Program-made: the position numbers and the translations under genes
Shown here: one piece after another, positions 7,921-48,115 of the stretch
Numbering within the stretch: the first letter of the stretch is position 1
How the letters are laid out: the number at the start of each line of letters is the position of its first letter
Assembly: GCA_026391775.1 (NCBI GenBank)
Contig: JAPLDK010000011.1
Span: 77,066-141,065 of the forward strand
Length of the DNA: 64,000 nt
Reading direction: 5' to 3'
DNA from: Bacteroidota bacterium
GTDB taxonomy: Bacteria; Bacteroidota; Bacteroidia; Bacteroidales; FEN-979
The notes under the pieces: model-generated
Seen by the model: only the letters and a program-made list of their open reading frames with translations
What the model was told of the DNA's origin: nothing
Database searches by the model: none

Positions 7921-7938
7921 TTGTTAACAAATTAACAA
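7921..7938. promoter_or_regulatory. Rex operator (perfect match to TTGTTAA-N4-TTAACAA)
   Basis: TTGTTAACAAATTAACAA lies 5 nt upstream of the hdrA-like start codon. A rex gene is present in the same window. Confidence 0.7.
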
Positions 7939-7942
7939 ATAG

Positions 7943-9748
7943 ATGAGAAGCAAAGAGATCACCGGTTTGTTCTTTTACAACCATTCGGGTTTGTATCCGG
8001 ACCCCATCGATTATTCAGAGTTAATCAGGTATTCATATTTATTTGAAAACGTAGCCAAAGCCTATACCTACTCTGATTTCATCTGGAATGAGAAAAACAT
8101 TCTGAAGAAAATCGAGGAGAATAATTTTAAGCGAATCATTATTGCAGGCTTGATTCCAGGGACCGTCAAGGCATTGTTTTCCAAAGCCATGGCGCTTGCA
8201 GGCAAAGATCCGGAGAAAGTCCTTCTTGCAAGTTTCAACGATTACTGTACAGGTACTTTATTCAATCCGGAGCGGCTTAAAATCGTTCTTGCTTCGATCA
8301 TATCAGGTATCCCTTATGAATTCACCGGGATTCCGGATGAACTGCCGGTTAATAATGCAACTCTTGTAGTAGGAGGAGGAATTTCAGGGATACAGGCTGC
8401 CCTGGAAATTGCTTACAGCAACAACCTGGTATACCTGGTGGAAAAAAGCGGTACCATAGGGGGGAAAATGGCCACATTTGACAAAACCTTCCCGACCCTT
8501 GACTGTGCTGCCTGTATACTTACTCCAAAAATGGTAGAGGTAAACCAGCATCCGAACATACGGCTGATGAGCTATTCCGAGATTATTGAAGTTACCGGCA
8601 GACCCGGAAATTTTAATGTCAAAGTGTTAAAAAAAGCCCGGAAGGTAAATGTGCAAACCTGTATCGGATGCGGAACCTGTGCCGAAAAGTGTCCTGCCCA
8701 GGCCCCAAGCGAGTTTGATGCCGGCACCTGCATGAGAAAAGCAATCTATATCCCTTTTCCACAGGCTGTTCCAAACAAATACCTTGTAGATGCGGAAAAC
8801 TGCATTTATCTGAAAAACGGAAAATGCAAAGCCTGTGTGAAAGCCTGTCCTGTCCCCGGCTGCATAGACCTGGATGAACAAGACTCTGAAGTCATTATTA
8901 ATGTCGGAAATATTATTATTGCCACCGGGTATAAGCCTTTCGATGCAGGGCGGATGACACAGTTCGGGTATGGGCAGTTCCCGAATGTCCTAAATTCGCT
9001 GGAGTTTGAAAGACTACTGAATGCTTCCGGCCCAACCAGCGGCAATATCCATTTCAGGAGTCAGGATAAAAAAGGGAATTGGATATTTAATACATCAACC
9101 GGAAAGCCGGAAAAGATCGCAATTATTCATTGTGTAGGCAGCCGTGACAAGAATTTCAATAAATATTGCTCGAGGGTGTGTTGTATGTACTCCCTGAAAT
9201 TCGCCCATCTGATCATGGAGAAACTTCCCGAAGCTGAAATTTTCGAATACTTTATCGACATGCGTTCCTTTGGTAAAGGTTATGAAGAGTTCTATGAGAG
9301 AATAAAGCAGGAGGATGTGTCTATTATCAGGGGTAAAACTGCAAAGGTCGAGCAGCATGGAGAAAAATTGTTTCTTAGGGGAGAAGACATCCTTAAAGGT
9401 GAGATCCTTGAAAACCTTGTGGACATGGTTATTTTATCGGTTGGCCTTGAATCAGGTGAGGATGCAGGGAAGATCAGTGAAATGCTGAACATTGCCACGA
9501 ATACTGACGGATGGTTTGAAGAGGCGCATTACAATCTTGACCCCACAGGAACCTGCCGCGGGGGCATCTTTCTGGCCGGCACATGCCAGGGGCCAAAAGA
9601 CATACCCGATTGTGTAGCCCAGGGATCTGCTGCTGCCGCCAGGGTTATTCAAAGCATTCTGAAAGGCAGGATACGCGACGATTCGATGTCGGTATCACTT
9701 GAACATGTGGAACGCAAAATAGAAGAATTATCTACTGTACCAATTTAA
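7943..9748 (+). CDS. HdrA/QmoA-type FAD and FeS flavoprotein, paralog 1
   Basis: FAD fold VVGGGISGIQAALEIA, HdrA hallmark HCVGSRDKNFNKYCSRVCCMYSLKF, and inserted ferredoxin motifs CIGCGTCAEKCP and CKACVKACP. Confidence 0.88.
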   Translation: MRSKEITGLFFYNHSGLYPDPIDYSELIRYSYLFENVAKAYTYSDFIWNEKNILKKIEENNFKRIIIAGLIPGTVKALFSKAMALAGKDPEKVLLASFNDYCTGTLFNPERLKIVLASIISGIPYEFTGIPDELPVNNATLVVGGGISGIQAALEIAYSNNLVYLVEKSGTIGGKMATFDKTFPTLDCAACILTPKMVEVNQHPNIRLMSYSEIIEVTGRPGNFNVKVLKKARKVNVQTCIGCGTCAEKCPAQAPSEFDAGTCMRKAIYIPFPQAVPNKYLVDAENCIYLKNGKCKACVKACPVPGCIDLDEQDSEVIINVGNIIIATGYKPFDAGRMTQFGYGQFPNVLNSLEFERLLNASGPTSGNIHFRSQDKKGNWIFNTSTGKPEKIAIIHCVGSRDKNFNKYCSRVCCMYSLKFAHLIMEKLPEAEIFEYFIDMRSFGKGYEEFYERIKQEDVSIIRGKTAKVEQHGEKLFLRGEDILKGEILENLVDMVILSVGLESGEDAGKISEMLNIATNTDGWFEEAHYNLDPTGTCRGGIFLAGTCQGPKDIPDCVAQGSAAAARVIQSILKGRIRDDSMSVSLEHVERKIEELSTVPI

Positions 9749-9761
9749 AACCAAGTATACC

Positions 9762-10892
9762 ATGAGTGTACGTGTTCAACCGGAGCTTAGGAACCAATTG
9801 ATTCAATTTGGCATTGGTGACTGGAATGCATGCTATCATTGCGGCACCTGCACTGCCCAATGCCCTCTTTCGGAAGAAGGCTTTCTTTTCCCGAGGAAAA
9901 AGATCCGCCTGATGCAGATGGGCCTGAAAAACGAGCTGGAAGCCAGTGTGGAGCCGTGGCTTTGTTATTATTGCGGCGACTGCTCAACATCCTGCCCCAG
10001 GGATGCCAATCCGGGCGAACTGATGATGTCGCTGAGAAGATATCTCACCTCAATCTATGACTGGACAGGTATGTCAAAGAAATTCTACACTTCTGAATTG
10101 TGGGAACTGGGCTTTATCATAGCGTTTGCCGCACTCGTTGTATTGTCGTTCCTAATCGTGCTTCCTTCTATGGGATATCATTTCACCAGGGAGCTGACAG
10201 CTGAAGGCGGAGTACAGGTCAATGCTTTCGCTCCAATCCATGTTGTCGAGACATTTGACTGGACCATGGCCGCCATAGTGGCATCCCTGCTTATTTCGAA
10301 CATTCTGAGGATGTATTACAAGATCATCTGGAAATATGGCAATATGAAAGTCAGCATATGGGTGCATATCAGGGAATTCTGGCTGCTTATCTTAAATTTC
10401 ACAGTACAACCGAAATTCAATAAATGCGATGACAAACGCTACTGGCTCTCACATTGGTTCCTGATGTCGGGGTACACTATCATGTTCATTGTTATTGTCG
10501 TCTATCTTCCATGGTTCCAAACAGAGAAGATCCTGCCGGTATGGCATCCTCAAAGGCTCCTCGGTTACTATGCAACCTTCGGGCTGCTCTTTGGTTTGTT
10601 CGTGGCTATAATCGGACGTATTCAACGGAAGGACATCAAATTTTTGTTTTCGCATATCAGTGACTGGCTTTTCCTCGCTATGCTAACCCTGACCGCAATT
10701 ACCGGCATACTGATCCATATTTTCAGGATAACCGGGATGCCGGTGGCCACATACATATCATACATTGCCCATATGTCGGTGCTGGTCCCGATGATTCTTA
10801 TCGAAGTGCCATTTTCAAAATGGTCCCATCTTGCCTACCGGCCTTTTGCCGTATATTTTCAACAGCTTAAAAAATATGCAGTTCCAAGGTAA
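9762..10892 (+). CDS. QmoC-like subunit: HdrC-type 2x[4Fe-4S] domain fused to a His-rich polytopic membrane domain
   Basis: N-terminal CYHCGTCTAQCP and CYYCGDCSTSCP are followed by at least five long hydrophobic segments with many His (WLSHWF, LIHIF, YIAHM, KWSHL). Confidence 0.7.
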   Translation: MSVRVQPELRNQLIQFGIGDWNACYHCGTCTAQCPLSEEGFLFPRKKIRLMQMGLKNELEASVEPWLCYYCGDCSTSCPRDANPGELMMSLRRYLTSIYDWTGMSKKFYTSELWELGFIIAFAALVVLSFLIVLPSMGYHFTRELTAEGGVQVNAFAPIHVVETFDWTMAAIVASLLISNILRMYYKIIWKYGNMKVSIWVHIREFWLLILNFTVQPKFNKCDDKRYWLSHWFLMSGYTIMFIVIVVYLPWFQTEKILPVWHPQRLLGYYATFGLLFGLFVAIIGRIQRKDIKFLFSHISDWLFLAMLTLTAITGILIHIFRITGMPVATYISYIAHMSVLVPMILIEVPFSKWSHLAYRPFAVYFQQLKKYAVPR

Positions 10893-10919
10893 TCCGATCA
10901 TCCCTGAAAAACAAAAATT

Positions 10920-12644
10920 ATGGAAGAACCGAGAATAGGGGTTTATGTCTGCTGGTGCGGCACCAATATCTCCAAAATGGTGGATGTGGAAGCTGTGACC
11001 AAGGAAGTCAGCACCCTGCCGAGCGTGGTCCTGTCAAAAAACTACAAATACATGTGTTCCGATCCAGGGCAGGATCTGATCATCAAGGATATCAAATCGC
11101 ATAATCTGAACCGGGTTGTTGTCGCTGCCTGCTCTCCCCGTCTTCACGAACTTACTTTCCGCAATGCCTGCGAGAAGGCAGGTATTAATCCCTACCTTTT
11201 CGAGATGGCAAACATTCGGGAGCAGGATTCCTGGGTACATACCGACCGCACTGAGGCAACCAAAAAAGCCATCGACCTTGTTATCGCAGCCATCAGAAGA
11301 GTAAGATACCACGAATCTTTGCAGAAACGCTCGGTGAATGTTGACCCGTCCACCCTTATCATTGGTGGAGGCATATCAGGAATGACTGCAGCTCTGGAGA
11401 TCGCAAATGCCGGCAAAAAAGTTTTCCTGATTGAAAAGGCCGACCATCTTGGTGGTCAGGTTGCGAGGTTCGACCTCACTTTCCCCCACCTCTCAAGCGC
11501 ACAACAGATGATAGGGCCAATGATACAGCGGGTTGAGAACCATCCCATGATCAATGTGTACCTGAACACTGAACTGAAAGAAGTCAAAGGGTACATAGGG
11601 AACTTCACGGCCAGGCTGCAGTTCATGGGTGTTGAACAGCCTGAGATAACCTTTGGCAATATCATAGCAGCTGTCGGCCTCAAACCGTTTGACCCATCAG
11701 TGATTGAAGAATACAGTTACGGCAAATTCCCGGATGTGATCACATCACTTGAATTCGAGGATAAGCTGAGGGCCGGCAGGATCCTTACAAAGTACGGCAA
11801 AGAGCCAAGGAATGTGGCAATCATACATTGCGTGGGCAGCCGAAACAAGAAATATCATGAGTACTGCTCCAGGGTCTGTTGCATGGTAGCATTGAAATTT
11901 GTCCATGAGATCCGCGCAGCACTGCCCGATGCCAATATTTTTGAGATTTATGCCGACATGAGGGCATATGGCAAAGGGCATGAAGAGTTCTATGCCATGA
12001 CCACGCATAAACAAATCATTTTTCTGATGTACGACCAGCAGAAACGCCTGCCCGTGATAAGTGAAGCTCACCGCGATGATGATTGCAATATGCTGATCGA
12101 AATGAATGAGCTTCTTTCGGGGATTGATATTGAAGTGCCTGTGGATATGGTGATACTGATGGTCAATATGGAGGCCCATGATAATGTCAAGGAAGTGGTC
12201 CGCGCTATTGGGGTGAGTTTATGCGGTAACCAGTTCTTTATTGAGAAACATCCGAAACTGGATCCGGTCGCCACGACTACCGGTGGTGTCTATATTGTCG
12301 GTACATGCCAGGGGCCTAAAGATATCCCGGATTCTGTTGCCCAGGCTAAAGCTGCTGCAGCCAGGATACTTGGGACTATTGCCCAGGGTTCTGTAGCGGT
12401 TGAAGTCACTACGGCCGTCGTTAACGAATCTCTTTGCTGTGGCTGCCAGACCTGCATCAGTGTATGCCCATATACGGCATTATCATATGATGAAATTAAA
12501 AAAGCATCGGTGGTCAATGAAGTATTATGTAAAGGTTGCGGAACCTGCGGAGGGTGTTGTCCGGCCGGGGCCATTACAAGTAAACATTTCACCGACCGCC
12601 AGATCCTTTCAGAGATTGAAGGTATAATGTCCATGTCATATTAA
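10920..12644 (+). CDS. HdrA/QmoB-type FAD and FeS flavoprotein, paralog 2, with C-terminal 2x[4Fe-4S] ferredoxin domain
   Basis: N-terminal IGVYVCWCGTNISK, IIGGGISGMTAALEIA, HCVGSRNKKYHEYCSRVCCMVALKF, and C-terminal CCGCQTCISVCP and CKGCGTCGGCCP. Confidence 0.88.
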   Translation: MEEPRIGVYVCWCGTNISKMVDVEAVTKEVSTLPSVVLSKNYKYMCSDPGQDLIIKDIKSHNLNRVVVAACSPRLHELTFRNACEKAGINPYLFEMANIREQDSWVHTDRTEATKKAIDLVIAAIRRVRYHESLQKRSVNVDPSTLIIGGGISGMTAALEIANAGKKVFLIEKADHLGGQVARFDLTFPHLSSAQQMIGPMIQRVENHPMINVYLNTELKEVKGYIGNFTARLQFMGVEQPEITFGNIIAAVGLKPFDPSVIEEYSYGKFPDVITSLEFEDKLRAGRILTKYGKEPRNVAIIHCVGSRNKKYHEYCSRVCCMVALKFVHEIRAALPDANIFEIYADMRAYGKGHEEFYAMTTHKQIIFLMYDQQKRLPVISEAHRDDDCNMLIEMNELLSGIDIEVPVDMVILMVNMEAHDNVKEVVRAIGVSLCGNQFFIEKHPKLDPVATTTGGVYIVGTCQGPKDIPDSVAQAKAAAARILGTIAQGSVAVEVTTAVVNESLCCGCQTCISVCPYTALSYDEIKKASVVNEVLCKGCGTCGGCCPAGAITSKHFTDRQILSEIEGIMSMSY

Positions 12645-12654
12645 CCGTAACAGT

Positions 12655-13092
12655 ATGAATTTCAGACCCACAATTGTAGCTTTCCTTTGCAACTGGTGCG
12701 CCTATACAGGCGCAGACCTTGCAGGCACATCGAGGCTTCACTATGCGCCGAATGTGCGTATCATCCGGATTATGTGTTCAGGCAGAATTGAACCCACTTT
12801 TATCCTGAAGGCCTTTAAAGAAGGAGCTGATGGTGTTCTTGTCTGTGGATGTCATCCGGGCGACTGCCATTACCAGGAAGGAAATTATAAATGCCTCAGG
12901 CGGTTTAAGCTGCTGGAAAAATTCGTCAGCCAGATGGGCATTGAAAAGGAACGGCTTAAGCTGGAATGGATCAGCGCCAGCGAAGGTAAACAGTTTGCCG
13001 AACTGATAAATGAGATGACAAAGACCATACTTCAGCTTGGTCCTGGCAAAGTGAATAAAACACTGGAATTTGAACATTTTAAAACGAAGTAA
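12655..13092 (+). CDS. mvhD: MvhD/FlpD-type hydrogenase delta subunit ([2Fe-2S])
   Basis: FLCNWCAYTGADLAG...IRIMCSGRIEP...GADGVLVCGCHPGDCHY is the classic MvhD signature. Confidence 0.92.
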   Translation: MNFRPTIVAFLCNWCAYTGADLAGTSRLHYAPNVRIIRIMCSGRIEPTFILKAFKEGADGVLVCGCHPGDCHYQEGNYKCLRRFKLLEKFVSQMGIEKERLKLEWISASEGKQFAELINEMTKTILQLGPGKVNKTLEFEHFKTK

Positions 13093-13094
13093 TC

Positions 13095-14075
13095 ATGGCT
13101 CAGGAATCCACCAAACCAAAACTTAAACTGGCAATATACTGGGGCGCTGCCTGCGGAGGCTGTTGTGTTTCCGTGCTCGACACGCATGAAAAGCTTCTTG
13201 ATATTGTTGCTGCAGCCGATCTTGTATTCTGGCCGATCGCGATGGATATTAAATACAAGGATGTTGAGAATATGCCCGATAAATCGATCGACCTGACACT
13301 TTTCAATGGGGCGGTCCGTAACAGTGAAAATAAACATTTGGCCCAGCTGCTCCGGCAAAAATCAAAAATCCTGGTGGCGTATGGCTCCTGCGCTTATATG
13401 GGGGGGATACCAGGCCTTGCAAACTTCTTCTCTCGCAATGAAATCTTTAAAAGGGCTTACGAGGAAACCGAATCTACCTTAAACCCTGATAAAACCATTC
13501 CTTTGCATAGTTTTAAAGTTAAAGAAGGAATCCTGGAGATCCCTGAAATGTTCAATGATGTTTTTCCCCTGAACCAGATCGTGGATGTGGATTATTATAT
13601 TCCCGGATGTCCTCCTCAGAGTGAGAGGCTGCTGGAAGTATTTTCAGCGATTGTATCCGGGATAGGGCTTCCGCCGGCCGGCTCGGTTGTCGGAGCCAAT
13701 GACAAGACCAACTGTGATGAGTGCAAGCGGAAAAAGTCCGATAAGAAGCAGATCAAAAGATTTTACAGACCCTGGGAGATCCAGGATGATAAAGAAACTT
13801 GTTTTATTGAACAGGGGGTTATCTGCATGGGTCCTGCAACCCGCGGAGGGTGCGGAGTCCGTTGTGTGGAAGGCAACTCTCCATGCCGGGGATGCTACGG
13901 ACCACCTCCCGGAGCAACCGACCCGGGCGCAAAAATGATGGCAGCAATCGGGACCATGATAGCTGCCGACAAACCTGAAGAGATTGATGAAATAATTGAA
14001 ACTATTGTTGACCCGGCCGGACTGTTCTACCGTTTCAGCCTGCCCGGCTCTATCTTGGGGAGGAAGATACTATGA
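13095..14075 (+). CDS. mvhG: [NiFe] hydrogenase small subunit, MvhG-like (group 3 type)
   Basis: No Tat signal. N-terminal WGAACGGCCVS, GCPP, and a C-terminal Cys-rich cluster region (CMGPATRGGCGVRCVEGNSPCRGCYGP). It sits directly upstream of the large subunit. Confidence 0.88.
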   Translation: MAQESTKPKLKLAIYWGAACGGCCVSVLDTHEKLLDIVAAADLVFWPIAMDIKYKDVENMPDKSIDLTLFNGAVRNSENKHLAQLLRQKSKILVAYGSCAYMGGIPGLANFFSRNEIFKRAYEETESTLNPDKTIPLHSFKVKEGILEIPEMFNDVFPLNQIVDVDYYIPGCPPQSERLLEVFSAIVSGIGLPPAGSVVGANDKTNCDECKRKKSDKKQIKRFYRPWEIQDDKETCFIEQGVICMGPATRGGCGVRCVEGNSPCRGCYGPPPGATDPGAKMMAAIGTMIAADKPEEIDEIIETIVDPAGLFYRFSLPGSILGRKIL

Positions 14076-15535
14076 AGCATATAAGCATTGATCCGATTAC
14101 AAGGCTTGAAGGCCATGGGAAGATAGAAATCTACCTCAACAATGAAGGGGAAGTTGAGAATGCCTACTTCCAGGTCCCCGAGCTGAGGGGTTTTGAAAAG
14201 TTTTGTGAAGGCCGGCCGGTTGAAGAACTGCCATCCATCGTCACAAAAATATGTGGTGTTTGTCCTGGCTGCCATCATATGGCTTCAGGCAAAGCCGTTG
14301 ATGGTGTTTTCGGTGTTGAACCACCCCCTACCGCTAAAAAATTAAGAGAACTTTTCTACATGGCTCATTTTGTCCACAGCCATATTGCCCACTTTTATGC
14401 TCTGGCAGCTCCCGACTTCGTTGTAGGCCCTACTGCAAACCCGGCTGAACGGAATATACTCGGGGTCATCGGTAAAGTAGGCCTGCAGATAGGGTCAGAA
14501 GTCATCAAACAGCGCCGAATTGCCCAGGAAATACAAGCACTTATCGGAGGTCACCAAACGCATGTCGTCATGAATACCCCCGGCGGGGTAAAAAAAGGCA
14601 TCACTCCGGAGCAACGGGATGATATTATAAAAAAAGCAGAAGGATTCGTTGAATTTGCAAAATTCTCGATTCAATTGTTCAAGGATGTGGTACTCGGAAA
14701 TAAGGAGTATGTCGAGCTCATCCTGCACGGCCCTTATTCATTGACACTGCATTCCATGGGGCTGGTCGATGAACAGAATAAAGTCAATTTCTATGACGGG
14801 AAAGTAAGGGTCGTAGATACCATTGGTAAAGAACTTTACAAGTATGCGCCAGGGCAGTACCTTGATTTCGTTGAGGAGCGGGTCGAACCATGGACATACC
14901 TGAAATTCCCATACCTTAAAAAGATCGGGTGGAAGGGCTTCACCGACGGCCAGGAATCAGGAGTTTACCAGGCTACACCACTGTCAAGACTGAATGCAGC
15001 TGACGGGATGGCAACGCCTATAGCTCAGCAGGAGTATGATTTTATGTATAAAACCCTTGGTGGGAAGCCGGTCCATGCTACACTTGCTATGCATTGGGCC
15101 AGGCTGATCGAATTGATATACGCAGCTGAACATTGCCTTGAACTCGCATTGGATCCGGAAATAACAGGTAAAGAACTTCGGGCCCCATTGGGGAAAATAG
15201 TCGGCGAAGGAATAGGAATTGTCGAAGCCCAGAGAGGAACACTCACCCATCATTACTGGACTGATGACAGAGGATTGGTCAGAAAAGTCAACCTGATCGT
15301 AGGAACCACCAACAATCATGCAGCGATCTGCATGTCAATTAAAAAAGCTGCCCAGGGCCTTATCAAAAAAGGCAGCGAGATAACGGAAGGGACACTGAAC
15401 ATGATTGAAATGGCCTTCAGGGCCTATGATCCTTGCTTCTCATGTGCCACTCATTCCCTTCCCGGCCAGATGAAGATGGTCCTTAACATCAGGGATATTG
15501 AAGGCAATATCATTGATTCATTCAGTAGAAAATAA
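14072..15535 (+). CDS. mvhA: [NiFe] hydrogenase large subunit, MvhA-like
   Basis: RLEGHGKIEI N-terminus, L1 motif KICGVCPGCHH, and C-terminal DPCFSCATH followed by a 26-aa tail expected to be cleaved. ATGA overlap with mvhG. Confidence 0.93.
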   Translation: MKHISIDPITRLEGHGKIEIYLNNEGEVENAYFQVPELRGFEKFCEGRPVEELPSIVTKICGVCPGCHHMASGKAVDGVFGVEPPPTAKKLRELFYMAHFVHSHIAHFYALAAPDFVVGPTANPAERNILGVIGKVGLQIGSEVIKQRRIAQEIQALIGGHQTHVVMNTPGGVKKGITPEQRDDIIKKAEGFVEFAKFSIQLFKDVVLGNKEYVELILHGPYSLTLHSMGLVDEQNKVNFYDGKVRVVDTIGKELYKYAPGQYLDFVEERVEPWTYLKFPYLKKIGWKGFTDGQESGVYQATPLSRLNAADGMATPIAQQEYDFMYKTLGGKPVHATLAMHWARLIELIYAAEHCLELALDPEITGKELRAPLGKIVGEGIGIVEAQRGTLTHHYWTDDRGLVRKVNLIVGTTNNHAAICMSIKKAAQGLIKKGSEITEGTLNMIEMAFRAYDPCFSCATHSLPGQMKMVLNIRDIEGNIIDSFSRK

Positions 15536-15544
15536 TGTTAAATT

Positions 15545-16036
15545 ATGGAAACAGAAAAAATTCTTGTTCTGGGCATAGGTAATGACATCCTCACGGATGA
15601 TGGTATCGGGCCAAAACTGGTCAGAGACCTAACTAATATGAAGCTGAACGTTGAGATTACATTTGAAACTGCTGCAGTGGGAGGCCTGGAGTTGCTGGAA
15701 ATTGTATCTGGGTATTCCCGCATTTTTATGATAGACGCCATCAGGACTTCAGGAGGGAAACCAGGGAATGTATACTTTCTCTCTCCGGATGATTTCAGGG
15801 AAACCATGCACATTTCAAACCTGCATGACATTAACTTCTTTACGGCACTTGAACTTGGCAACAAACTGAATTACCCTCTCCCCTCTGAGATTATGATAAT
15901 AGCCGTGGAGATAGCGGAAGACCTTGAATTCAGCGAACAACTAAGCCCGGCACTTCAAAAGCGCTATCCTGAAATCCTTTCGAAGGTCTCAAAGTTTCTT
16001 CTTGAGGCTCTGCTATTCCAGAAATTCAAAGCCTGA
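15545..16036 (+). CDS. Hydrogenase maturation endopeptidase (HyaD/HycI/FrhD family)
   Basis: ILVLGIGNDILTDDGIG motif, about 160 aa, immediately downstream of the large subunit. Confidence 0.88.
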   Translation: METEKILVLGIGNDILTDDGIGPKLVRDLTNMKLNVEITFETAAVGGLELLEIVSGYSRIFMIDAIRTSGGKPGNVYFLSPDDFRETMHISNLHDINFFTALELGNKLNYPLPSEIMIIAVEIAEDLEFSEQLSPALQKRYPEILSKVSKFLLEALLFQKFKA

Positions 16037-37697: not shown

Positions 37698-37706
37698 TGG
37701 CCGGAC

Positions 37707-39575: not shown

Positions 39576-39654
39576 AATGGTCAAAATTACAAATATATCA
39601 GCTCTTTCGACAAGATTCTCCAAATTTTTTCTTCCGAAATACCTAACCCTTTTA

Positions 39655-39672
39655 TTGTTTATTTATTAACAA
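39655..39672. promoter_or_regulatory. Rex operator between the HydS-like gene and hydrogenase set 3
   Basis: TTGTTTATTTATTAACAA has one mismatch to TTGTTAA-N4-TTAACAA. It lies 47 nt upstream of the -7 motif TATTTTTG (39720-39727). Confidence 0.62.
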
Positions 39673-39799
39673 TGATAATTTTTTCACAATAAATATTTTT
39701 ATAATTGAAATTATTACCTTATTTTTGTATATAATTGAAAGAAAGATTTATGGGGATGATAACCATTTAGTGAGGAATTAAAAGCAATATAAATACTGT

Positions 39800-40252: not shown

Positions 40253-40253
40253 C

Positions 40254-42203
40254 ATGCCAGCACAAGATTTAACCGACAACAGGGTATTTCTGATCGAGAA
40301 AGTCATTAAGAATTATTCCGGAATATTCGATAAAACGACAACCGACAGGCTGGCAATGCTGAGGCGTGATAAAGTTACACGTCCGGTGATCTATATAGGG
40401 ACAGGGACCTGCGGTATCATATCGGGAGCTAAGTCCACCCTGGGAAAAGTGAGGAATTATCTCTCTGAAAATAATATCATTGCTGATATCATAGAGGTAG
40501 GGTGTAATGGCTTCTGTTCTGCCGAACCCTTGCTTGATATACAGTTGCCCGGCAAGACAAGGTTATCATTCCGGAATGTAACTTGGGACAAAGCCGAGGA
40601 CATTTTGAATTCATCGCTGAACCACACCTTGCTGCCTGATCAGGTCCTTGGGCAGTATCAACAACCAGGACTTGAAGAATGGCCGAATGTGCAATTGCTT
40701 GATCAAATCCCCTGGTTCAGTCTTCAAAGAAGGTGCATACTTAAAAACGCAGGGATTATCTGTCCGGTTTCAATAGAAGACTACATTGTCAGGGGCGGTT
40801 ATAAACCTCTTTACAAGACGGTTTTAAATTACCCGGCCGATAAAATCTGCGAGATTATTGAGCAAAGCGAGTTAAGGGGCCGTGCGGGCGGAGGATTTCC
40901 AACCGGTAAAAAATGGAAGATAGCCCTTGACACTGCAGGTGATCAGAAATATATGATTTGCAATGCAGATGAGAGTGATCCCGGGGCTTTTATGGACAGG
41001 GCAATGATCGAAAGCGACCCTCACCGGGTCCTTGAAGGCATTGCCATCGCCTCATATGCGATCGGTGCGAGCCAGGCAATCATCTATGTCAGGTCAGACT
41101 ATGAAAACTCTCTGAATATTCTTGAGATGGCTATCAGGCAGGCGAAAGACTATGGCCTGTTGGGTGAGAACATCTTTGGAAGCGGGTTTAACCTCTCGGT
41201 AAGCATACGGCAGGGAGCCGGAGCTTTTGTATGCGGTGAGGAAACAGCCTTGGTTTCGAGTCTTGAAGGTCAGAGGGGATTACCGGGATCAAAACCTCCC
41301 TACCCTGCTGAGAAAGGCCTTTGGGGTCAACCAACAGTGATCAATAATGTGGAAACCCTGGCCAATATTCCCGGAATTCTTGAAAACGGTCCGGCATGGT
41401 TCAAAACCCTGGGCACGAAGTCTTCAAAAGGCACCAAATTATTCTCGGTTGCAGGAAAATCTGTCTCGACAGGATTCATCGAAGTACCCATGGGGACAAC
41501 GTTTTCTGCAATTATCAACAATATTGCTGGAGGAGTAAAGGACGGGAAAGCCTTAAAAGCTGTTCAACTTGGTGGACCTTCCGGAGTATGCATTCCTCCG
41601 GCTGATCTTGATACGCCTATTGATTTTGAATCTCTTTCCGAGATAGGGGCTACACTGGGGTTAGGCGGCCTGATCATCCTTGACGAGAAAACATGCATGG
41701 TCAATCTTGCCAGGTATTTCATGAATTTCCTGCAAAATGAGAGTTGCGGAAAATGTATTCCATGCAGGGAAGGCACAAGAATGATGCTGGATATTCTGGA
41801 AGGCATAACAAAGAGGCCGAAGGAGGAAACCACGCATGAGACCCTGGAACGCTTCAAAGGAGTTGTTCAGCTTGAAAGCCTTGCCGAGGTCATCCGTGAC
41901 ACTTCGCTTTGCGGGCTGGGGCAAAATGCGCCTAACCCGGTCCTCAGCTCTTTGAAATGGTTCAGGGAAGAATTTGAAGAACATATTTTCGACCGCCGGT
42001 GTTCGGCAGGTGTCTGCCATGATTTGCGTACGTTTTTTATCGATGTGGAATTTTGCAACGGATGTAATATCTGTCAGAAAAAATGCCCCGAGAACGCAAT
42101 TATAGGTTCTCTTAAACAACCTCATTTCATCATTGAATCCAAGTGTACAGGTTGCGGGATTTGCTTTGATGCCTGTAAATTCAGCGCAATCTATTTTAAA
42201 TAA
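40254..42203 (+). CDS. NuoF/HydB-like subunit with fused N-terminal Trx-like [2Fe-2S] and C-terminal 2x[4Fe-4S] domains (set 3)
   Basis: GTGTCGIISGA...VGCNGFCSAEP, ELRGRAGGGFPTGKKWK, GAGAFVCGEETALVSSLEG, ESCGKCIPCR, CGLGQ, CNGCNICQKKCP, CTGCGICFDAC. The ATG at 40254 follows the upstream stop by 1 nt. Confidence 0.9.
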   Translation: MPAQDLTDNRVFLIEKVIKNYSGIFDKTTTDRLAMLRRDKVTRPVIYIGTGTCGIISGAKSTLGKVRNYLSENNIIADIIEVGCNGFCSAEPLLDIQLPGKTRLSFRNVTWDKAEDILNSSLNHTLLPDQVLGQYQQPGLEEWPNVQLLDQIPWFSLQRRCILKNAGIICPVSIEDYIVRGGYKPLYKTVLNYPADKICEIIEQSELRGRAGGGFPTGKKWKIALDTAGDQKYMICNADESDPGAFMDRAMIESDPHRVLEGIAIASYAIGASQAIIYVRSDYENSLNILEMAIRQAKDYGLLGENIFGSGFNLSVSIRQGAGAFVCGEETALVSSLEGQRGLPGSKPPYPAEKGLWGQPTVINNVETLANIPGILENGPAWFKTLGTKSSKGTKLFSVAGKSVSTGFIEVPMGTTFSAIINNIAGGVKDGKALKAVQLGGPSGVCIPPADLDTPIDFESLSEIGATLGLGGLIILDEKTCMVNLARYFMNFLQNESCGKCIPCREGTRMMLDILEGITKRPKEETTHETLERFKGVVQLESLAEVIRDTSLCGLGQNAPNPVLSSLKWFREEFEEHIFDRRCSAGVCHDLRTFFIDVEFCNGCNICQKKCPENAIIGSLKQPHFIIESKCTGCGICFDACKFSAIYFK

Positions 42204-42211
42204 GGGGAATT

Positions 42212-43924
42212 ATGCTTCTTAATATCGAAATAAACGGTCAGCAGGTCAGTGCCAAACGGGGAGAAACCATACTAACGGTATTGAACCGAATTGGTGTGAA
42301 AGTCCCTACACTCTGTTATCTGAGCAGCCTTTCACCAAGCGGAGCCTGCCGCATGTGCGTTGTTGAAGTTGAGGGCCTGTCCCATCTTGTCCCGGCCTGT
42401 TCCCACCAGGTGGAGGAATGGATGCAGATCCATACTCATTCACCCAGGGTGCTCAAAGCCAGGAAAACCCTTGTTGAACTTCTGCTTGCCAATCATCCTG
42501 ATGACTGCCTTTACTGTGACCGTAACGGTACCTGCGAACTTCAGGGTTTATCGGAGGAACTTCAGGTAAGGGATCGTAAATATATCAGCAGGCATAAACC
42601 GGTCCAGATCGACAAAGCCTGCCCTTCAATCCAGAGGGATCCTGCAAAATGTGTTCTTTGCGGTCGTTGCAGCAGAGTTTGCCGGGAGATCATCGGAGTT
42701 GCTGCCATCGACGCCGTTGGTAGAGGATCGCATACAAGAATCGGGACTTCTTACAACCGGGGTCTTAATTTCAATGCCTGTGTCAAATGCGGGCAATGTA
42801 TCATAGCCTGCCCCACCGGTGCCCTTACTGAAAGAAAGGCACTTCCCATGGTTATAGAAGCCCTGGGGAATCCGGAGCTTTACCCAGTTGTACAGTTTTC
42901 CCCGACTGTTCCTGCCGCCATTGCCGAAGAATTCAGTTTGAAATCCAATAAGGATATCCTCAATCTTCTGCGTTCTGCCCTCAAGAAAATGGGGTTCCGG
43001 CAGAGTTTTGACGTTTCCCTGGCCGCCGACATTAACATTATGGAAGAAGCAGCGATTTTCCTTGAACGCTGGCCCAGGAATAAAATGCTTCCCTTGTTTA
43101 CCAGCTGCTGTCCGGCCTGGGTCAGGTACCTGGAAGTTTTCAGACCTGAATTCCGAGATCATTTATCTCCTGTTAAATCCCCGCAGCAGATCATGGGAAC
43201 GGTAATCAAACAATATATTACAAGCAGTGCCGGCATCAAATCCGATAAAGTATTTGTTGTGTCAGTCATGCCATGTACTGCGAAAAAGGCTGAAGCCGAA
43301 TTCGACAATAACGGGAACAAACCCGTAGATGCGGTCATCACGATCAGGGAGCTGGTGAGGATGATCAGGCTTTTGGGGATCGATTTCAGCAGTTTAGAAC
43401 CCGAGCCTACCGACACAGCTTTCAGCCTGAGCAGTTCAGCAGGAAGATTGTTTGGAATTTCGGGCGGTCATCTTGAAGGGTTGATACGGAGCATTTATTT
43501 CATGAGTACCGGGCAGGATATGAACCCTGCTAAAATTAATGACCTGAGAGGCTTAAAACCCAGGAAAGAAGCCAGGATAAAAATAAACAAACAACCCATA
43601 AATGTTGTTGCTGTGAGCGGTCTGGCAAATGCCATTGCACTTTTAGACGAGATTGAAAACGGCCGCGATGACATTCAGATCGTCGAAGTTATGGCCTGTC
43701 CGAATGGCTGTATCAACGGCGGAGGCCAGAAAATCGGATCTGATGAGAAAAGTCTCAAAGGTAGGATGAAGGCTCTTTACGATGTAGATGAAGAAGAAAT
43801 GGTTAAAATGGCACATAAAAATCCAACCATCACCGACCTTTTCGATAAATTTCTTTCCAAACCAAACAGTACAAGGAACCAGGAGATTTTGCACAAAGAC
43901 CACTCCAAATCATCAGAGGTATGA
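42212..43924 (+). CDS. [FeFe] hydrogenase-type subunit (set 3), divergent second-sphere residues
   Basis: M3 FeS domains (NHPDDCLYCDRNGTCELQ, CVLCGRCSRVC, CVKCGQCIIACP). Motifs are TSCCPAW, MPCTAKKAE and EVMACPNGCINGGGQK. Confidence 0.85.
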   Translation: MLLNIEINGQQVSAKRGETILTVLNRIGVKVPTLCYLSSLSPSGACRMCVVEVEGLSHLVPACSHQVEEWMQIHTHSPRVLKARKTLVELLLANHPDDCLYCDRNGTCELQGLSEELQVRDRKYISRHKPVQIDKACPSIQRDPAKCVLCGRCSRVCREIIGVAAIDAVGRGSHTRIGTSYNRGLNFNACVKCGQCIIACPTGALTERKALPMVIEALGNPELYPVVQFSPTVPAAIAEEFSLKSNKDILNLLRSALKKMGFRQSFDVSLAADINIMEEAAIFLERWPRNKMLPLFTSCCPAWVRYLEVFRPEFRDHLSPVKSPQQIMGTVIKQYITSSAGIKSDKVFVVSVMPCTAKKAEAEFDNNGNKPVDAVITIRELVRMIRLLGIDFSSLEPEPTDTAFSLSSSAGRLFGISGGHLEGLIRSIYFMSTGQDMNPAKINDLRGLKPRKEARIKINKQPINVVAVSGLANAIALLDEIENGRDDIQIVEVMACPNGCINGGGQKIGSDEKSLKGRMKALYDVDEEEMVKMAHKNPTITDLFDKFLSKPNSTRNQEILHKDHSKSSEV

Positions 43925-45900
43925 GCCACGCCTATCACAGGCAACTCGTGTTTACGGTAAAGGATAAATGCCGTGTATGCTATACTTGTGTTCGCGAATG
44001 TCCTGTAAAGGCTATTAAAATCATAAGGACACAGGCAGAAGTGATCAATGAACGATGTATTGGCTGCGGGAACTGTGTTAAGGTTTGCAGCCAGGGAGCA
44101 AAGTATCCGCTGCGTTCAATTGATGAAGTGAATGAGCTTCTGAAATCCGAAAAGAAAATAGCTGCATGCATTGCCCCCAGTTTCCCTGCAGAATTCACCG
44201 AGGTCCCCGATCACCGTATGTTTGTAGGAATGATCCGGGCTTTGGGATTCGATTATGTAGCGGAGGTTGCTTTTGGGGCCGACATGGTGGCCAGGGAATA
44301 CGAAAACAGGATCAAGAGGTCGGAAGGCGATGGTCAGATAAGCTCAGACTGCCCGGCTATTGTCTATTTCATCAGGCATTACCATCCGGAACTTGTGGGC
44401 AACCTTGCCCCTGTCGCTTCACCGATGCTGGCCATGACCCGGATCATGAAAAAGAAATACGGGGAAGATCTGAAGGTGGTCTTTATCGGCCCCTGTTTTG
44501 CAAAGAAAGCCGAGACGGATGAAATTGATGAAGTACTCACTTTCAGAGAGCTAAGAGAGATGTTCCAGGAAAAAGGAATCATCTGGGAAAATTCCAGTCC
44601 GTCAGTTTTTGATCCCCCGGTAAGCGGGAAAGGCGCTATCTTCCCGATCAGCCGCGGCCTGTACTTCACTGCTAATTCCACTGAAACCATTCCGGAAGAA
44701 CAGGTGGTGGTCGCTGAGGGCAGGGTAAATTTCAAGGAAGCCGTCAGGGAATTTGAGGAAGGCCTTATCCGGAATAAACATCTGATGCTGCTCTGTTGCG
44801 AAGGATGCATTATGGGCCCCGGCACTTCTCCCGGGGGCAAACGATTTGCAAGGAGTGCCGCTGTAGGAGAATATGTAAGTAAAAAACTGGCCACTGTCGA
44901 TAAAGAGCAATGGGAAAATCAGGTTGAGGAATTCAGCGGCCTCGATTTTTCCCAGCAATTCAGTCCGGAAGACCGCCGCTTCGAGATCCCGGCCGAAGAT
45001 AAAATTCTTGAAGCACTGCATGCTATGGGTAAGTTCAAACCCGGGGATCACCTCAATTGCGGAACCTGCGGATATGATACTTGTGTGGAACACGCGATTG
45101 CGATCGTAAAAGATCTTGCGGAAACGGAAATGTGTCTGCCCTATACGATTGAGAAACTGCATGACTCGATCAACAACCTGAATGTTTCCAACGACAAGCT
45201 TGCAAAGGCCAAGCAGGCCCTGAAGCAGTCGGAGAAGCTAGCCCATATGGGGCAGCTTTCGGCAGGGATTGCACATGAGCTTAACAACCCCCTGGGGGTC
45301 ATCACGATGTATTCGAATATCCTTATCGATGAATCTCCTGAAAACGATCCCATGCGGGATGACCTGAAACTTATTGCCGAACAGGCCGACCGCTGTAAGA
45401 AGATCGTAAGCGGCCTGTTAAATTTTGCACGAAAGAACCAGGTCACTCTGAGCGAAACTGATATTGTTAAATTCATGAGGCATAGTATTGATTCCATAAT
45501 TAAACCTTCAAACATTGAGATTGCATTCGAACCAAAAATAGCCGATCCTCAAGCCCGGCTTGACATCGATCAGATGATGCAGGTGCTTACGAACCTGGAA
45601 AAAAATGCTGTTGAAGCGATGCCTGACGGCGGAACGCTTACAGTAGGTGTTGAAGGGGACCAGAAAGAGATACGGTTTATTATTGCCGATACCGGAACAG
45701 GGATATCCAAAGAATATATGGATAAAATTTTTACTCCGTTTTTTACAACCAAGGAAATGGGAAAGGGCACGGGACTTGGACTGGCTCTTATCTACGGGAT
45801 TGTCAAGATGCACAAAGGGAAAATACATGTTGAATCGAATGATGATGTTACAAAAGGGAACACAGGAACGACGTTTACGATAACCTTACCAAGAACATGA
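43921..45900 (+). CDS. HydS-like sensory [FeFe] hydrogenase domain fused to a histidine kinase
   Basis: CRVCYTCVRECP and CIGCGNCVKVCS. H-domain-like motifs are SSDCPAIV, IGPCFAKKAE and LLCCEGCIMGPG. Cys cluster CGTCGYDTC...MC. Then H-box SAGIAHELNNPLG, N-box LEKNAVEAM, DTGTGI and GKGTGLGLA. ATGA overlap with the upstream hydrogenase gene. Confidence 0.85.
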   Translation: MSHAYHRQLVFTVKDKCRVCYTCVRECPVKAIKIIRTQAEVINERCIGCGNCVKVCSQGAKYPLRSIDEVNELLKSEKKIAACIAPSFPAEFTEVPDHRMFVGMIRALGFDYVAEVAFGADMVAREYENRIKRSEGDGQISSDCPAIVYFIRHYHPELVGNLAPVASPMLAMTRIMKKKYGEDLKVVFIGPCFAKKAETDEIDEVLTFRELREMFQEKGIIWENSSPSVFDPPVSGKGAIFPISRGLYFTANSTETIPEEQVVVAEGRVNFKEAVREFEEGLIRNKHLMLLCCEGCIMGPGTSPGGKRFARSAAVGEYVSKKLATVDKEQWENQVEEFSGLDFSQQFSPEDRRFEIPAEDKILEALHAMGKFKPGDHLNCGTCGYDTCVEHAIAIVKDLAETEMCLPYTIEKLHDSINNLNVSNDKLAKAKQALKQSEKLAHMGQLSAGIAHELNNPLGVITMYSNILIDESPENDPMRDDLKLIAEQADRCKKIVSGLLNFARKNQVTLSETDIVKFMRHSIDSIIKPSNIEIAFEPKIADPQARLDIDQMMQVLTNLEKNAVEAMPDGGTLTVGVEGDQKEIRFIIADTGTGISKEYMDKIFTPFFTTKEMGKGTGLGLALIYGIVKMHKGKIHVESNDDVTKGNTGTTFTITLPRT

Positions 45901-46301
45901 GCACTAAAAACAAACTGATCCTGATCGTTGATGATGACCAGGATTACCTTTACCAGATGAAAACCAGGGTCGAATCCTTTGGATTTCAGACACTTCTTGC
46001 CGAGAGCCAGAAAGAGGCTGAAGAACTGATTGAAAAAACAAAACCGGATCTTGCCATTGTTGACCTGATGATGGAAAACGAGGATAGCGGCTTTATCCTG
46101 TGTTATAAAATGAAGAAAAAATACCCGGAAGTCCCTATCATTATTGCAACGGGTGTTGCAGCTGAGACCGGGATATCCTTTGACATTAACGATGAGAACA
46201 ACCGGAAATGGATCAAGGCAGATCGTTTCCTTGAGAAAGGAATCCGGAAAGAGAAACTTAAAGAGGAAATAGATAAACTATTGATCAAAATTAACAGCTG
46301 A
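45897..46301 (+). CDS. Single-domain response regulator (receiver only)
   Basis: LILIVDDDQD, AIVDLMM, IIIATG, LEKG. No output domain. ATGA overlap with the kinase gene. Confidence 0.88.
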   Translation: MSTKNKLILIVDDDQDYLYQMKTRVESFGFQTLLAESQKEAEELIEKTKPDLAIVDLMMENEDSGFILCYKMKKKYPEVPIIIATGVAAETGISFDINDENNRKWIKADRFLEKGIRKEKLKEEIDKLLIKINS

Positions 46302-46333
46302 TGTTGAAATACAGGTTTTTTCCCTTATTTTTG

Positions 46334-46351
46334 ATGTGATTATATTAACAT
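46334..46351. promoter_or_regulatory. Weak Rex-box-like inverted repeat overlapping the start of the receiver-kinase gene
   Basis: ATGTGATTATATTAACAT resembles the set-2 box (TTGTGAT-N4-TTAACAA), but both outermost positions are mismatched. Confidence 0.3.
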
Positions 46352-47483
46352 GTCTACTCTAAAGATTCTTGTAATAGATGATGAACCAGGCATCAGGAGC
46401 GGGATAAGCCGTATCCTGCGAAACTTCAGAGTGGACTACCCGTTCATGGAAGAAGCGTTCGATTTTGAGGTTCACGAAGCTTCAACCGGTGAAGCCGGGA
46501 TTGAACTTATCGAAAAAGACAAACCCGACATCCTGCTGCTTGACAATAAACTGCCTGGAATTCAGGGGATTGAGGTGCTGGAATACATCCGTAAAAAACA
46601 GATGAACATCATTGTGGTGATGATCACTTCCTATGCCTCGCTTGAACTTGCAGTGAAGGCCACGAGTGACGGAGCATACGACTTTATCCCCAAACCCTTC
46701 ACTCCTCAGGAACTTAAGTCTTCGATCGAAAATATCACTAAACGGGTATTCCTGAAGAAAATGACCAACAAACTTCAGGAGACTGGCAAACAGATCAGGT
46801 TTCAGTTTCTTTCTGTTCTTTCACATGAGCTCAAGGCGCCTCTTAACTCCATAGAAGGGTATTTGCAAATGATCAAGGAAAGACAGGCAGGTCCACAACT
46901 TGAGAGTTATGATTACATGGTCGACCGCATGCTGGAAAGAATTAAAGGGATGAGGACGCTGATTCTTGATTTACTGGATCTGACAAAAGCTGCCTCAGGA
47001 AAGGGGAAACGGGATATCAGGGAACTTAATCTAGTGGACATTGCTAACACTGCAATCGATACAATGAGGCCGTATTCAATTCAGAAAGATGTAAAGCTGA
47101 ACCTTCACGGGAATGATACGGTCAAAATCATGGCAGATAGCGAGGAGATGGAAATCATCTTTAACAACCTGATCAGCAATGCCATTAAATACAATAAGGA
47201 AGGCGGCACTGTAGATTGTACCATAAGTGAAAACGGAAATTGTGTTGAAATACTTGTGGAAGATTCAGGTATTGGTATGAACCCTGAGGATATTACCAGG
47301 ATTTTCGACGATTTTGTAAGGATTAAAACCGAAAAAACCAGAAATATAACCGGCAGCGGGCTCGGGCTCGCCATTGTAAAAAAGCTAATCGACACTTATA
47401 TGGGGAAAATTGAGGTTACCAGCCAGCCGGATAAGGGCAGTAAATTTAAAGTCAAACTTCCAATTGATAAACCATGTTCATAA
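46350..47483 (+). CDS. Receiver-histidine kinase hybrid (REC-HisKA-HATPase)
   Basis: ILVIDDEPGI, ILLLDNKLPG, MITSY, PKPF, then H-box LSVLSHELKAPLN, N-box LISNAIKYN, DSGIGM and GSGLGLA. Confidence 0.9.
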   Translation: MSTLKILVIDDEPGIRSGISRILRNFRVDYPFMEEAFDFEVHEASTGEAGIELIEKDKPDILLLDNKLPGIQGIEVLEYIRKKQMNIIVVMITSYASLELAVKATSDGAYDFIPKPFTPQELKSSIENITKRVFLKKMTNKLQETGKQIRFQFLSVLSHELKAPLNSIEGYLQMIKERQAGPQLESYDYMVDRMLERIKGMRTLILDLLDLTKAASGKGKRDIRELNLVDIANTAIDTMRPYSIQKDVKLNLHGNDTVKIMADSEEMEIIFNNLISNAIKYNKEGGTVDCTISENGNCVEILVEDSGIGMNPEDITRIFDDFVRIKTEKTRNITGSGLGLAIVKKLIDTYMGKIEVTSQPDKGSKFKVKLPIDKPCS

Positions 47484-48115
47484 AAAACCTACCTCACAAG
47501 ACGGTCGAACGTCTCAGCCAGTATCGTCGTGCTCTTCTGATGATATTATCAAAAGAGAAGACCCATGTATTTTCTCATGAGATTGCCCAGATGCTGCATA
47601 TCACACCCGTTCAGGTCAGACGTGACCTGATGCTTATTGGCTATTCAGGGAACCTGAGAAAAGGCTATGACATCAAGGAGCTGATCGAACTTATCGGAAA
47701 AATTATAGATTCAGAGCGTGGTCAACGGGTTGCCGTAGTCGGATTGGGCAATCTGGGGAAAGCGTTCATCAGCTATTTTAAAGGGAAGCGTTCCAAGCTT
47801 AGTATGATCGCTGCTTTTGACATCAATCCTGAAAAAATCAACAGGGTTTTTGACGGTGTTCCCTGTTACCATATCAACCAACTAACCGATATCATAAAAC
47901 AAAATAATATCTCCATCGGCATCATTACTGTACCCTCGGAACAGGCCCCTGAGATCGCCGAATCTCTTGTTTTATCGGGGATCAAAGGAATACTAAATTA
48001 CACTCCCAAGCCTCTCAATGTCCCGGCTTATGTATACCTCGAAGAATATGACATGATAACATCCCTGGAAAAAGTCGCATTCTTCGCCAAGAAAAACGAC
48101 GAACGATTTAAGTAA
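47474..48115 (+). CDS. rex: Redox-sensing transcriptional repressor Rex
   Basis: RLSQYRRAL, S.E.A......PVQVRRDL...G..GKGY-type winged helix, Rossmann VVGLGNLGKA, and GIKGILNYTPKPLNVP. Collinear with B. subtilis Rex by eye. It overlaps the upstream gene by 10 nt. Confidence 0.9.
   Translation: MFIKNLPHKTVERLSQYRRALLMILSKEKTHVFSHEIAQMLHITPVQVRRDLMLIGYSGNLRKGYDIKELIELIGKIIDSERGQRVAVVGLGNLGKAFISYFKGKRSKLSMIAAFDINPEKINRVFDGVPCYHINQLTDIIKQNNISIGIITVPSEQAPEIAESLVLSGIKGILNYTPKPLNVPAYVYLEEYDMITSLEKVAFFAKKNDERFK

Follow-up and report, generated by a model that had tools for sequence, protein, structure and literature searches.

The 64,000-nucleotide stretch analysed here (the window; positions 77,066 to 141,065 of contig JAPLDK010000011.1, assembly GCA_026391775.1) comes from a Bacteroidales bacterium related to freshwater and anoxic-sediment metagenome-assembled genomes (MAGs) and carries four hydrogenase loci: an Hdr/Mvh-type [NiFe] operon and three [FeFe] hydrogenase loci termed sets 1, 2, and 3. 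Each is preceded by an 18-bp palindrome, and comparison of related loci makes it highly likely that these palindromes are operators of the Rex protein encoded in the same island (47474-48115, + strand). An initial annotation had proposed Rex operators in front of all four hydrogenase loci. The four palindromes it reported are all present in the sequence, and the proposal gains support from a genuine Rex, footprinting across relatives, the co-occurrence of the palindromes with rex, and the rarity of the motif elsewhere.

The assignment of rex itself was confirmed by Pfam, NCBIfam, and structure matches. The protein combines an N-terminal winged helix (PF06971, 2.9e-13) with a C-terminal Rossmann NAD(H) domain (PF02629, 8.9e-20), exceeds the cutoffs of two NCBIfam models (NF003995, 200.1 bits against 126; NF003996, 185.2 bits against 138), and matches all solved Rex structures with E values of 1.5e-34 to 8.8e-26, the best being B. 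subtilis Rex (2vt2, 1.5e-34). Alignment to 3keo, 2vt2, and 5zz5 shows that the recognition helix VRRDL and the motifs GLGNLG (GxGxxG) and AFDINP (FD(I)NP) are retained. R49 and R50 of the window protein correspond to Arg50 and Arg51 of S. agalactiae Rex, which contact operator guanines (PMC8376106). The start of rex overlaps the stop of the preceding hybrid kinase gene by 10 nt, and rex is 97-99% identical in the closest relatives (L001-L006), with neighbouring genes at 82-96%.

The canonical Rex operator is TTGTGAA-N4-TTCACAA (PMC6391272, PMC8376106), and the N6 spacing given for it in the initial annotation was an error; the variant TTGTTAANNNNTTAACAA (TTGTTAA-N4-TTAACAA) is the Clostridiaceae consensus (PMC8457756). 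The window sites (Table 1) have the form of these 18-bp inverted repeats, and orthologous sites from other genomes yield the motif T-T-G-T-[T/G]-A-[A/T]-N4-[T/A]-T-[A/C]-A-C-A-A. Within the window there are 18 matches with at most 3 mismatches, compared with 4.98 +/- 2.27 in shuffled sequence (0 of 100 shuffles reach 18), and all 5 matches with at most 2 mismatches are intergenic in a window whose intergenic DNA amounts to 2,664 of 64,000 bp.

Such palindromes could in principle be chance products of AT-rich DNA or functionless relics of duplicated promoters, since sets 1-3 are paralogous operons and the four operator spacers have a G+C content of 20-27%. Because of this low G+C content, the chance test consisted of 5,000 dinucleotide-preserving shuffles of the four spacers themselves. 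With at most 2 mismatches, 0.095 matches were expected and 5 were seen, and with at most 1 mismatch 0.0066 were expected and 3 were seen; matches occurred in all four spacers, and never in more than two of the four in any shuffle. AT-richness therefore does not explain the palindromes. Only the boxes and the -7 elements have been conserved in relatives down to ~55% protein identity, and hardly any copies of the motif occur in the remaining AT-rich DNA of these genomes, leaving chance or relic status with a probability close to nil.

A position weight matrix (PWM) trained solely on sites of other genomes and then run over the 64-kb window placed its eight best matches in these promoters (in descending order 19792, 32073, 7921, 39655, 46334, 7090, 32090, and 39672, from 24.4 to 13.6 bits, with 22.8 bits for Rex operator 1 at 7921). 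The ninth, at 10.6 bits, lies in coding DNA. According to the initial annotation, every other half-site in the window lacked a partner, which does not hold for the boxes at 32090-32107, 39672-39689, and 7090-7107. A further palindrome at 32169-32186 (TTTTAAACAGATTAACAA) also has 2 mismatches, yet it is absent at the orthologous place in L001, L004, and L006, scores 5.0 bits, and is probably not functional. The weaker copy noted initially at 46334-46351 does exist and overlaps the ATG (46350) of the hybrid receiver/kinase gene that precedes rex.

Conservation was followed across 132 loci (designated by L numbers), 80 from genomes, centred on HydB3 homologues, and 52 from metagenomes, centred on the SDR-HydA fusion described below, with the window proteins mapped onto each. 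The closest are Bacteroidales/Bacteroidota MAGs, with HydB3 identities of at most 89% (94% on a partial match, L032). The hdrA1 box recurs, often perfectly, in 11 loci (L082-L084, L085, L087-L089, L095, L099, L100, and L106), the hydC1 box in ~35, and the hydC3 box in ~45, down to 55% HydB identity. Of 30 distinct sequences upstream of hydC1, 29 have TTGTTAGTTTATTAACAA and then, 9-10 nt further on, TAATTTTG. The hyp129 box is found in ~20 loci; the window and its close relatives have a single box common to the divergent hydC1 and hyp129 promoters, and relatives with a long spacer carry two, one per promoter. The box before the set 2 ferredoxin gene is present in the 3 close relatives that keep the arrangement. 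Conservation is confined to boxes and -7 elements, while the flanking DNA drifts in relatives down to ~55-60% protein identity, and the distance from box to -7 box is fixed at orthologous operons. In these Rex-encoding genomes the sites are kept upstream of orthologous redox or fermentation genes.

The boxes also follow rex. The gene order HydS-PAS/PP2C, hydC3-B3-A3, HydS-kinase, receiver, hybrid kinase, rex, ribF is kept in ~47 Bacteroidales loci, and the loci from Lentisphaerae, Planctomycetota, Caldisericota, and Fibrobacterota instead have rex immediately in front of hydC. A box with at most 2 mismatches stands before hydC in all 34 loci with rex in the operon, a box stands before rex in 9 of the 13 with rex upstream, and none of the 8 loci with no rex nearby has a box. 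These 8 rex-less Bacteroidales loci (L051, L054, L059, L062, L066, L067, L069, and L075) contain the same hydCBA/HydS-kinase/receiver/hybrid-kinase operon; we looked there for a DNA-binding regulator in place of rex, whose presence would have suggested Rex as the output of the relay, and found none, the next genes being hydG-hydF-hydE. The linkage of relay genes and rex extends across several phyla. In L099 a rex gene (58-696, 85% identical) sits ~9 kb from the set 1 cluster and not after set 3, so rex is not tied to one place among the hydrogenase loci.

Outside the masked promoters, 1.7 Mb of DNA held 21 matches with at most 1 mismatch, 11 of them before hydG (TIGR03955, 495 bits), most of the others before set-2-like operons, and ~5 unexplained. 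The initial annotation had named a motif common in AT-rich intergenic DNA regardless of gene function as the observation that would speak against Rex, and since so few matches occur and most precede hydG or set-2-like operons, the ~1.7 Mb of available DNA does not show this pattern. In Lentimicrobiaceae-like loci (L023-L047), a perfect or 1-mismatch box lies 39-50 nt upstream of the -7 box before hydG (for example in L024, with the box at 20323-20340 and hydG at 20416-21852).

Because the closest loci are Bacteroidales/Bacteroidota, the spacers were read with the Bacteroidetes sigma-A -7 box TAnnTTTG, which occupies -12 to -5 (PMC9723704; also PMC7366714), and all transcription start sites (TSSs) were predicted from this element alone. 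Relative to these predicted TSSs, the boxes overlap the core promoter at the FNR-like gene described below, hdr/mvh, set 1, and receiver/kinase-rex, and lie clear of it at sets 2 and 3, giving three layouts. In the first, the box covers the -7 box and the TSS (-7 to +11 at the FNR-like gene, -7 to +11 at hdr, and -4 to +14 at receiver/kinase-rex), and bound Rex would repress by direct occlusion. In the second, the single box at 19792-19809 lies over the -33 regions of the divergent set 1 hydCBA and hyp129/SDR-HydA promoters (-40 to -23 for hydC1 and about -44 to -27 for hyp129), where direct occlusion would again be expected. In the third, a double operator at -77 to -43 would most likely block upstream contacts of RNA polymerase at sets 2 and 3, which is the least certain step of the scheme. 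A rise in NADH would release Rex and de-repress the NADH-linked hydrogenases. As rex ends the operator-bearing set 3 operon and would also be read from its own internal promoter, we propose that the circuit is autoregulated, the weaker box at 46334 being the candidate site; in other phyla boxes lie 36-105 bp before rex.

The initial annotation had placed all hydrogenase modules under one NADH/NAD+ switch. A single switch is too simple, as the hdr/mvh promoter also has an FNR-type site beside an FNR-like regulator gene, and two sensory hydrogenases (HydS-PAS/PP2C and a HydS-histidine kinase with a phosphorelay) and two further two-component systems are interleaved with the operons. The gene directly upstream of the Hdr/Mvh operon encodes a Crp/Fnr-family regulator whose best NCBIfam models are Fnr/FnrL, below cutoff (85 bits against 228). 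Its start is placed at ATG 7112 and not at the annotated TTG 7097, since in L082 an in-frame stop precedes that ATG. A Rex-like box in front of it (7090-7107), initially overlooked, stands in the same register to the -7 box as at the hdr promoter. In L082-L084 the half-sites of this box are retained and the 4-bp spacer varies, and in L099 and L100, where the crp genes are 48-53% identical, a box with at most 2 mismatches abuts the ATG. Both the variable spacer between retained half-sites and the box next to this ATG in distant relatives speak against its being nothing more than the -7 element. Upstream of this promoter, a block at 7040-7075 (atatgataattatacataattt) is near-identical in L082-L084, which are close relatives.

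The hdr promoter in turn has a palindrome TGAy-N4-rTCA followed by a T-tract, which is kept upstream of hdrA1 in 10 relatives. It is the sole intergenic one of 8 matches in the window and probably the site of the adjacent FNR-like regulator; activator sites of the FNR/CRP type are palindromes of the form TTGAT-N4-ATCAA centred near -41.5. The putative hdr/mvh -7 element was assigned from its sequence and from a register to the Rex box that matches the FNR-like promoter. Since the FNR-like gene has a Rex box and hdr/mvh has an FNR-type site, we propose a feed-forward arrangement running from Rex through the FNR-like regulator to hdr/mvh.

The proximity of this regulator gene to operator 1 also raises the question of whether the boxes are bound by the Crp/Fnr-family protein, or by some other factor, and not by Rex. 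The motif cores overlap, the CRP core TGTGA-N6-TCACA being nested within the Rex consensus. Against such binding, the hdr promoter offers that protein a more natural site in the separate, conserved TGAy-N4-rTCA at -41.5; the boxes retain the outer T and A of the Rex consensus as well as its A7/T12 positions; and they follow rex (34/34 versus 0/8) in loci that have no crp gene. In other phyla, moreover, it is rex itself that the boxes precede, by 36-40 bp, in agreement with the prediction for Caldithrix (PMC5317091). We consider recognition by a factor other than Rex very unlikely.

At sets 2 and 3, the palindrome first reported is the left half of a longer element, and the double operator had been overlooked. 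Box B begins at the final base of box A, so that the two have 1 bp in common and their centres are 17 bp apart. Set 2 box B scores 16.6 bits, and boxes A and B and the -7 box are all kept in L001, L004, and L006. The tandem pair of set 3 is kept in ~44 distinct Bacteroidales sequences, and in 43 of 44 box B is separated from the -7 box by 27-30 nt, which puts the composite at about -77 to -43. Counted over all loci as pairs of neighbouring boxes in unique sequences (PWM at least 11 bits), 53 of 55 have the exact 17-bp offset, among them pairs that precede rex in L061 (Lentisphaerae) and set-2-like operons in L085, L095, and L107. Position 4 is C in box B of one clade. A -7-like element just 3' of set 3 box B (39694-39701, TATTTTTA), which would put box B over the -33 region, was rejected, as it is not conserved beyond close relatives.

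Because these operators lie upstream of the core promoter, how Rex would act on sets 2 and 3, and with which sign, is a matter of inference. One alternative is that at these composites, and before hydG in relatives, Rex acts as an activator, an anti-activator, or the DNA-binding output or partner of the H2-sensing phosphorelay. The box centres at ~-68.5 and -51.5 are typical activator positions, and the distance to the -7 box stays at 27-30 nt in 43 of the 44 sequences. Pfam scans found a DNA-binding domain in none of the HydS-kinase, receiver, and hybrid receiver/kinase proteins, and rex overlaps the last relay gene by 10 nt in a linkage kept across several phyla; activation by Rex has been suggested, though not demonstrated (PMC8457756). 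Set against this, all characterised Rex proteins are repressors (PMC6391272, PMC8376106), and since upstream contacts of RNA polymerase reach to ~-55, occlusion from a position of -43 to -60 is plausible. The rex-less relatives retain the phosphorelay, followed by hydGFE, and no substitute regulator, so the relay needs no cis-encoded Rex. On balance a role of this kind for Rex is improbable, as is the related reading of the 17-bp double operator (in Bacteroidales and also before rex in Lentisphaerae) as the mark of two Rex dimers acting otherwise than by promoter occlusion. If it were true, a single stretch of DNA would combine the signals of H2 partial pressure and NADH/NAD+.

Several points weigh against the operators being sites of a repressing Rex, which nevertheless remains our preferred reading. 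Box B at 39672 departs from the strict consensus at 3 positions. A simple steric repressor would not usually bind upstream of the core promoter, where the operators of sets 2 and 3 (-77 to -43) and those preceding hydG in relatives are placed. Each TSS was predicted from the -7 motif only, and at hdr this motif is itself inexact. The 46334 box is kept only in the closest relatives (L001-L006) and is degenerate beyond them. The motif scan covered the window and the 10-kb flanks of relatives, that is, parts of genomes, and the loci compared are homologous to one another, so that their shared boxes do not count as wholly separate observations.

Table 1. Operators, promoter elements, and genes of the hydrogenase island (positions in the window; TSS positions are predicted)
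Feature	Position	Strand	Sequence	Remarks
Rex operator 1	7921-7938		TTGTTAACAAATTAACAA	0 mismatches to TTGTTAA-N4-TTAACAA; 4 nt 5' of hdrA1 ATG
Rex operator 2	19792-19809		TTGTTATTTAATTAACAA	1 mismatch; PWM 24.4 bits
Set 2 box A	32073-32090		TTGTGATTTTATTAACAA	2 mismatches (1 with G permitted at position 5); PWM 23.0 bits
Set 2 composite operator	32073-32107		ATGTGAAAAAAATAACAC (box B)	Box A 32073-32090 and box B 32090-32107; -77 to -43
Set 3 box A	39655-39672		TTGTTTATTTATTAACAA	1 mismatch
Set 3 composite operator	39655-39689		ATGATAATTTTTTCACAA (box B)	Box A 39655-39672 and box B 39672-39689; -77 to -43
Weaker Rex box	46334-46351		ATGTGATTATATTAACAT	-4 to +14; PWM 18.8 bits, 5th best; candidate for rex autoregulation
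Rex-like box of FNR-like gene	7090-7107		TTGTTATTTGATAAACAG	Over -7 box and TSS; PWM 18.2 bits, 6th best
FNR-type palindrome	7881-7892		TGATATAAATCA	Centre at ~-41.5 from predicted hdr TSS
-7 box of FNR-like gene	7085-7092	+	TAAATTTG	Exact TAnnTTTG; predicted TSS ~7097
-7-like box of hdr/mvh	7916-7923	+	TTCATTTG	1 mismatch to TAnnTTTG; predicted TSS ~7928
-7-like box of hyp129/SDR-HydA operon	19770-19777	-	TAACTTTA	Predicted; kept in L081-L084 and L105
-7 box of hydC1-hydB1-hydA1	19820-19827	+	TAATTTTG	Predicted TSS ~19832
-7 box of set 2	32138-32145	+	TAATTTTG	Predicted TSS ~32150
-7 box of set 3	39720-39727	+	TATTTTTG	Predicted TSS ~39732; kept in nearly all loci
Internal -7 box before receiver/kinase-rex	46326-46333	+	TATTTTTG	Predicted TSS ~46338; kept in Prolixibacteraceae-like relatives
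Crp/Fnr-family regulator	7112-7828	+	CELCHQAYHKFFIC (N-terminal Cys motif)	Pfam cNMP_binding and HTH_Crp_2
Hdr/Mvh-type [NiFe] operon	7943-16036	+		HdrA-like, Fe-S protein, HdrA-like, MvhD, small subunit, large subunit, maturation protease
hyp129 and SDR-HydA operon	16052-19752	-		129-aa protein and 1104-aa SDR/epimerase-[FeFe] hydrogenase fusion
Set 1 HydC/HydB/HydA	19885-23368	+		NADH-dependent (bifurcating-type) [FeFe] hydrogenase
Set 2 operon	32222-36414	+		2Fe-2S ferredoxin-like, HydB2, HydA2, HydC2
HydS with PAS and PP2C/SpoIIE phosphatase	36513-39623	-		Divergent from set 3; synteny kept in L001-L047
Set 3 operon	39800-46301	+		HydC3, HydB3, HydA3 (39800-43924), HydS-histidine kinase fusion, stand-alone receiver
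HydS-histidine-kinase fusion, receiver, hybrid receiver/kinase	43921-47483	+		
Hybrid receiver/histidine kinase	46350-47483	+		Pfam Response_reg, HisKA, and HATPase_c

The gene content of the island as described initially holds up in Pfam and NCBIfam. HydA1 (863 bits), HydA2 (891 bits), and the SDR-HydA fusion (811.7 bits) all score above the cutoff (765) of FeFe_hydrog_A6, the NCBIfam model for NADH-dependent [FeFe] hydrogenase, which fits control by an NADH-responsive repressor. The fusion is unusual in uniting an epimerase/SDR domain (NAD-dependent) and a full [FeFe] hydrogenase of the NADH-dependent type. The 129-aa protein, which has no family match, precedes it in every case, and the pair is kept in more than 40 metagenome loci (L081-L132). 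In the Hdr/Mvh operon, the gene between the two HdrA-like genes (9762-10892) gave 4Fe-4S dicluster matches only and no CCG-domain match in the scans run, and on these scans the label HdrB/C is not justified. HydB3 (40200-42203, 667 aa) has a ~200-aa N-terminal extension before the FMN-binding domain, and its listed GTG start overlaps hydC3 by 53 nt. The interval between sets 1 and 2 (23510-31946) encodes a 282-aa and a 580-aa protein without family match, a 1046-aa Reg_prop/Y_Y_Y histidine kinase, and an OmpR-type two-component pair (24486-27021) whose open reading frames overlap by ~125 nt. In many relatives, synteny with set 1 extends to the 282-aa gene and the OmpR-type pair.

To a specialist, the main result will be expected rather than surprising. 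Rex control of hydrogen metabolism, known from experiments in Firmicutes, would be extended to uncultured Bacteroidales, which abound in anoxic lakes, peat, and digesters and contribute there to setting H2 fluxes. The comparison adds an operator map covering six promoters in three layouts, a matrix that can be applied to whole MAGs, the double-operator layout, an additional FNR-like layer, and a close association with H2 sensors. A puzzle in its own right is why a double operator with a fixed 17-bp offset should lie in front of the core promoter, next to an H2-sensing phosphorelay that lacks an obvious output. In the searchable literature, which does not include the key comparative paper of 2012, we found no description of a Rex regulon in Bacteroides/Bacteroidales or of a 17-bp double operator. 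Nor did we find tandem Rex operators in that literature; S. aureus ldh1 has two predicted sites, for which the geometry is not given. A review-style statement has Rex as apparently absent from most Gram-negative bacteria (PMC8376106).

Rex control of hydrogenases is a well-known regulatory logic, very probably used here in a less-studied phylum with a conserved double-site layout. The closest parallels are the Rex regulons of Clostridia (C. acetobutylicum, C. thermocellum, and Caldicellulosiruptor bescii), which have the same regulator family and range of 18-bp palindromes as the window and common targets in the bifurcating [FeFe] hydrogenase, the [NiFe] hydrogenase, hydG (here in relatives), and rex (here a candidate target) (PMC6391272, PMC8457756). 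In C. bescii, binding before [FeFe] and [NiFe] hydrogenase genes, hydG, and rex was demonstrated by electrophoretic mobility shift assay (PMC6391272), and DNA affinity purification sequencing identified the same Rex targets in C. thermocellum (PMC8457756). By comparison, the host of the window is a Gram-negative Bacteroidales with sigma-A -7/-33 promoters, two of its operons have, in front of the core promoter, a 35-bp double operator whose boxes keep a 17-bp offset, rex closes a hydrogenase/H2-sensor operon and does not stand as a separate gene, and the regulon is a prediction from sequence.

Caldithrix abyssi (Calditrichaeota, FCB group) resembles the window in linking rex to a HydABC-type hydrogenase with a predicted Rex site; its rex-hydABC cluster has that site 38 bp upstream of rex (PMC5317091), a layout that recurs in L050, L057, L061, and L064. 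In the window, rex instead lies downstream, after the sensor kinase genes, and boxes are found at four hydrogenase loci and a regulator gene, not at one operon. Ruminococcus albus also clusters HydABC with a HydS containing PAS, a phosphatase, and Rex, and in the parts of the literature available to us joint control of HydABC by HydS and Rex, through H2 and redox state, has been proposed (summarised in PMC10084766, PMC5707799). The window differs in having two sensory hydrogenases, one linked to PAS/PP2C and one fused to a histidine kinase with a phosphorelay, and operators that have been mapped and footprinted across many genomes.

The paradigm for the family comes from Streptomyces coelicolor, Thermus, and Streptococcus agalactiae, with the Rex operator TTGTGAA-N4-TTCACAA and release driven by NADH (PMC8376106). 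Window Rex has the same winged helix and Rossmann domains and the Arg-Arg pair for base contacts, but the wing arginine aligns one residue out of register, position 5 of the boxes is mostly T and not G, and position 4 is C in box B of one clade.

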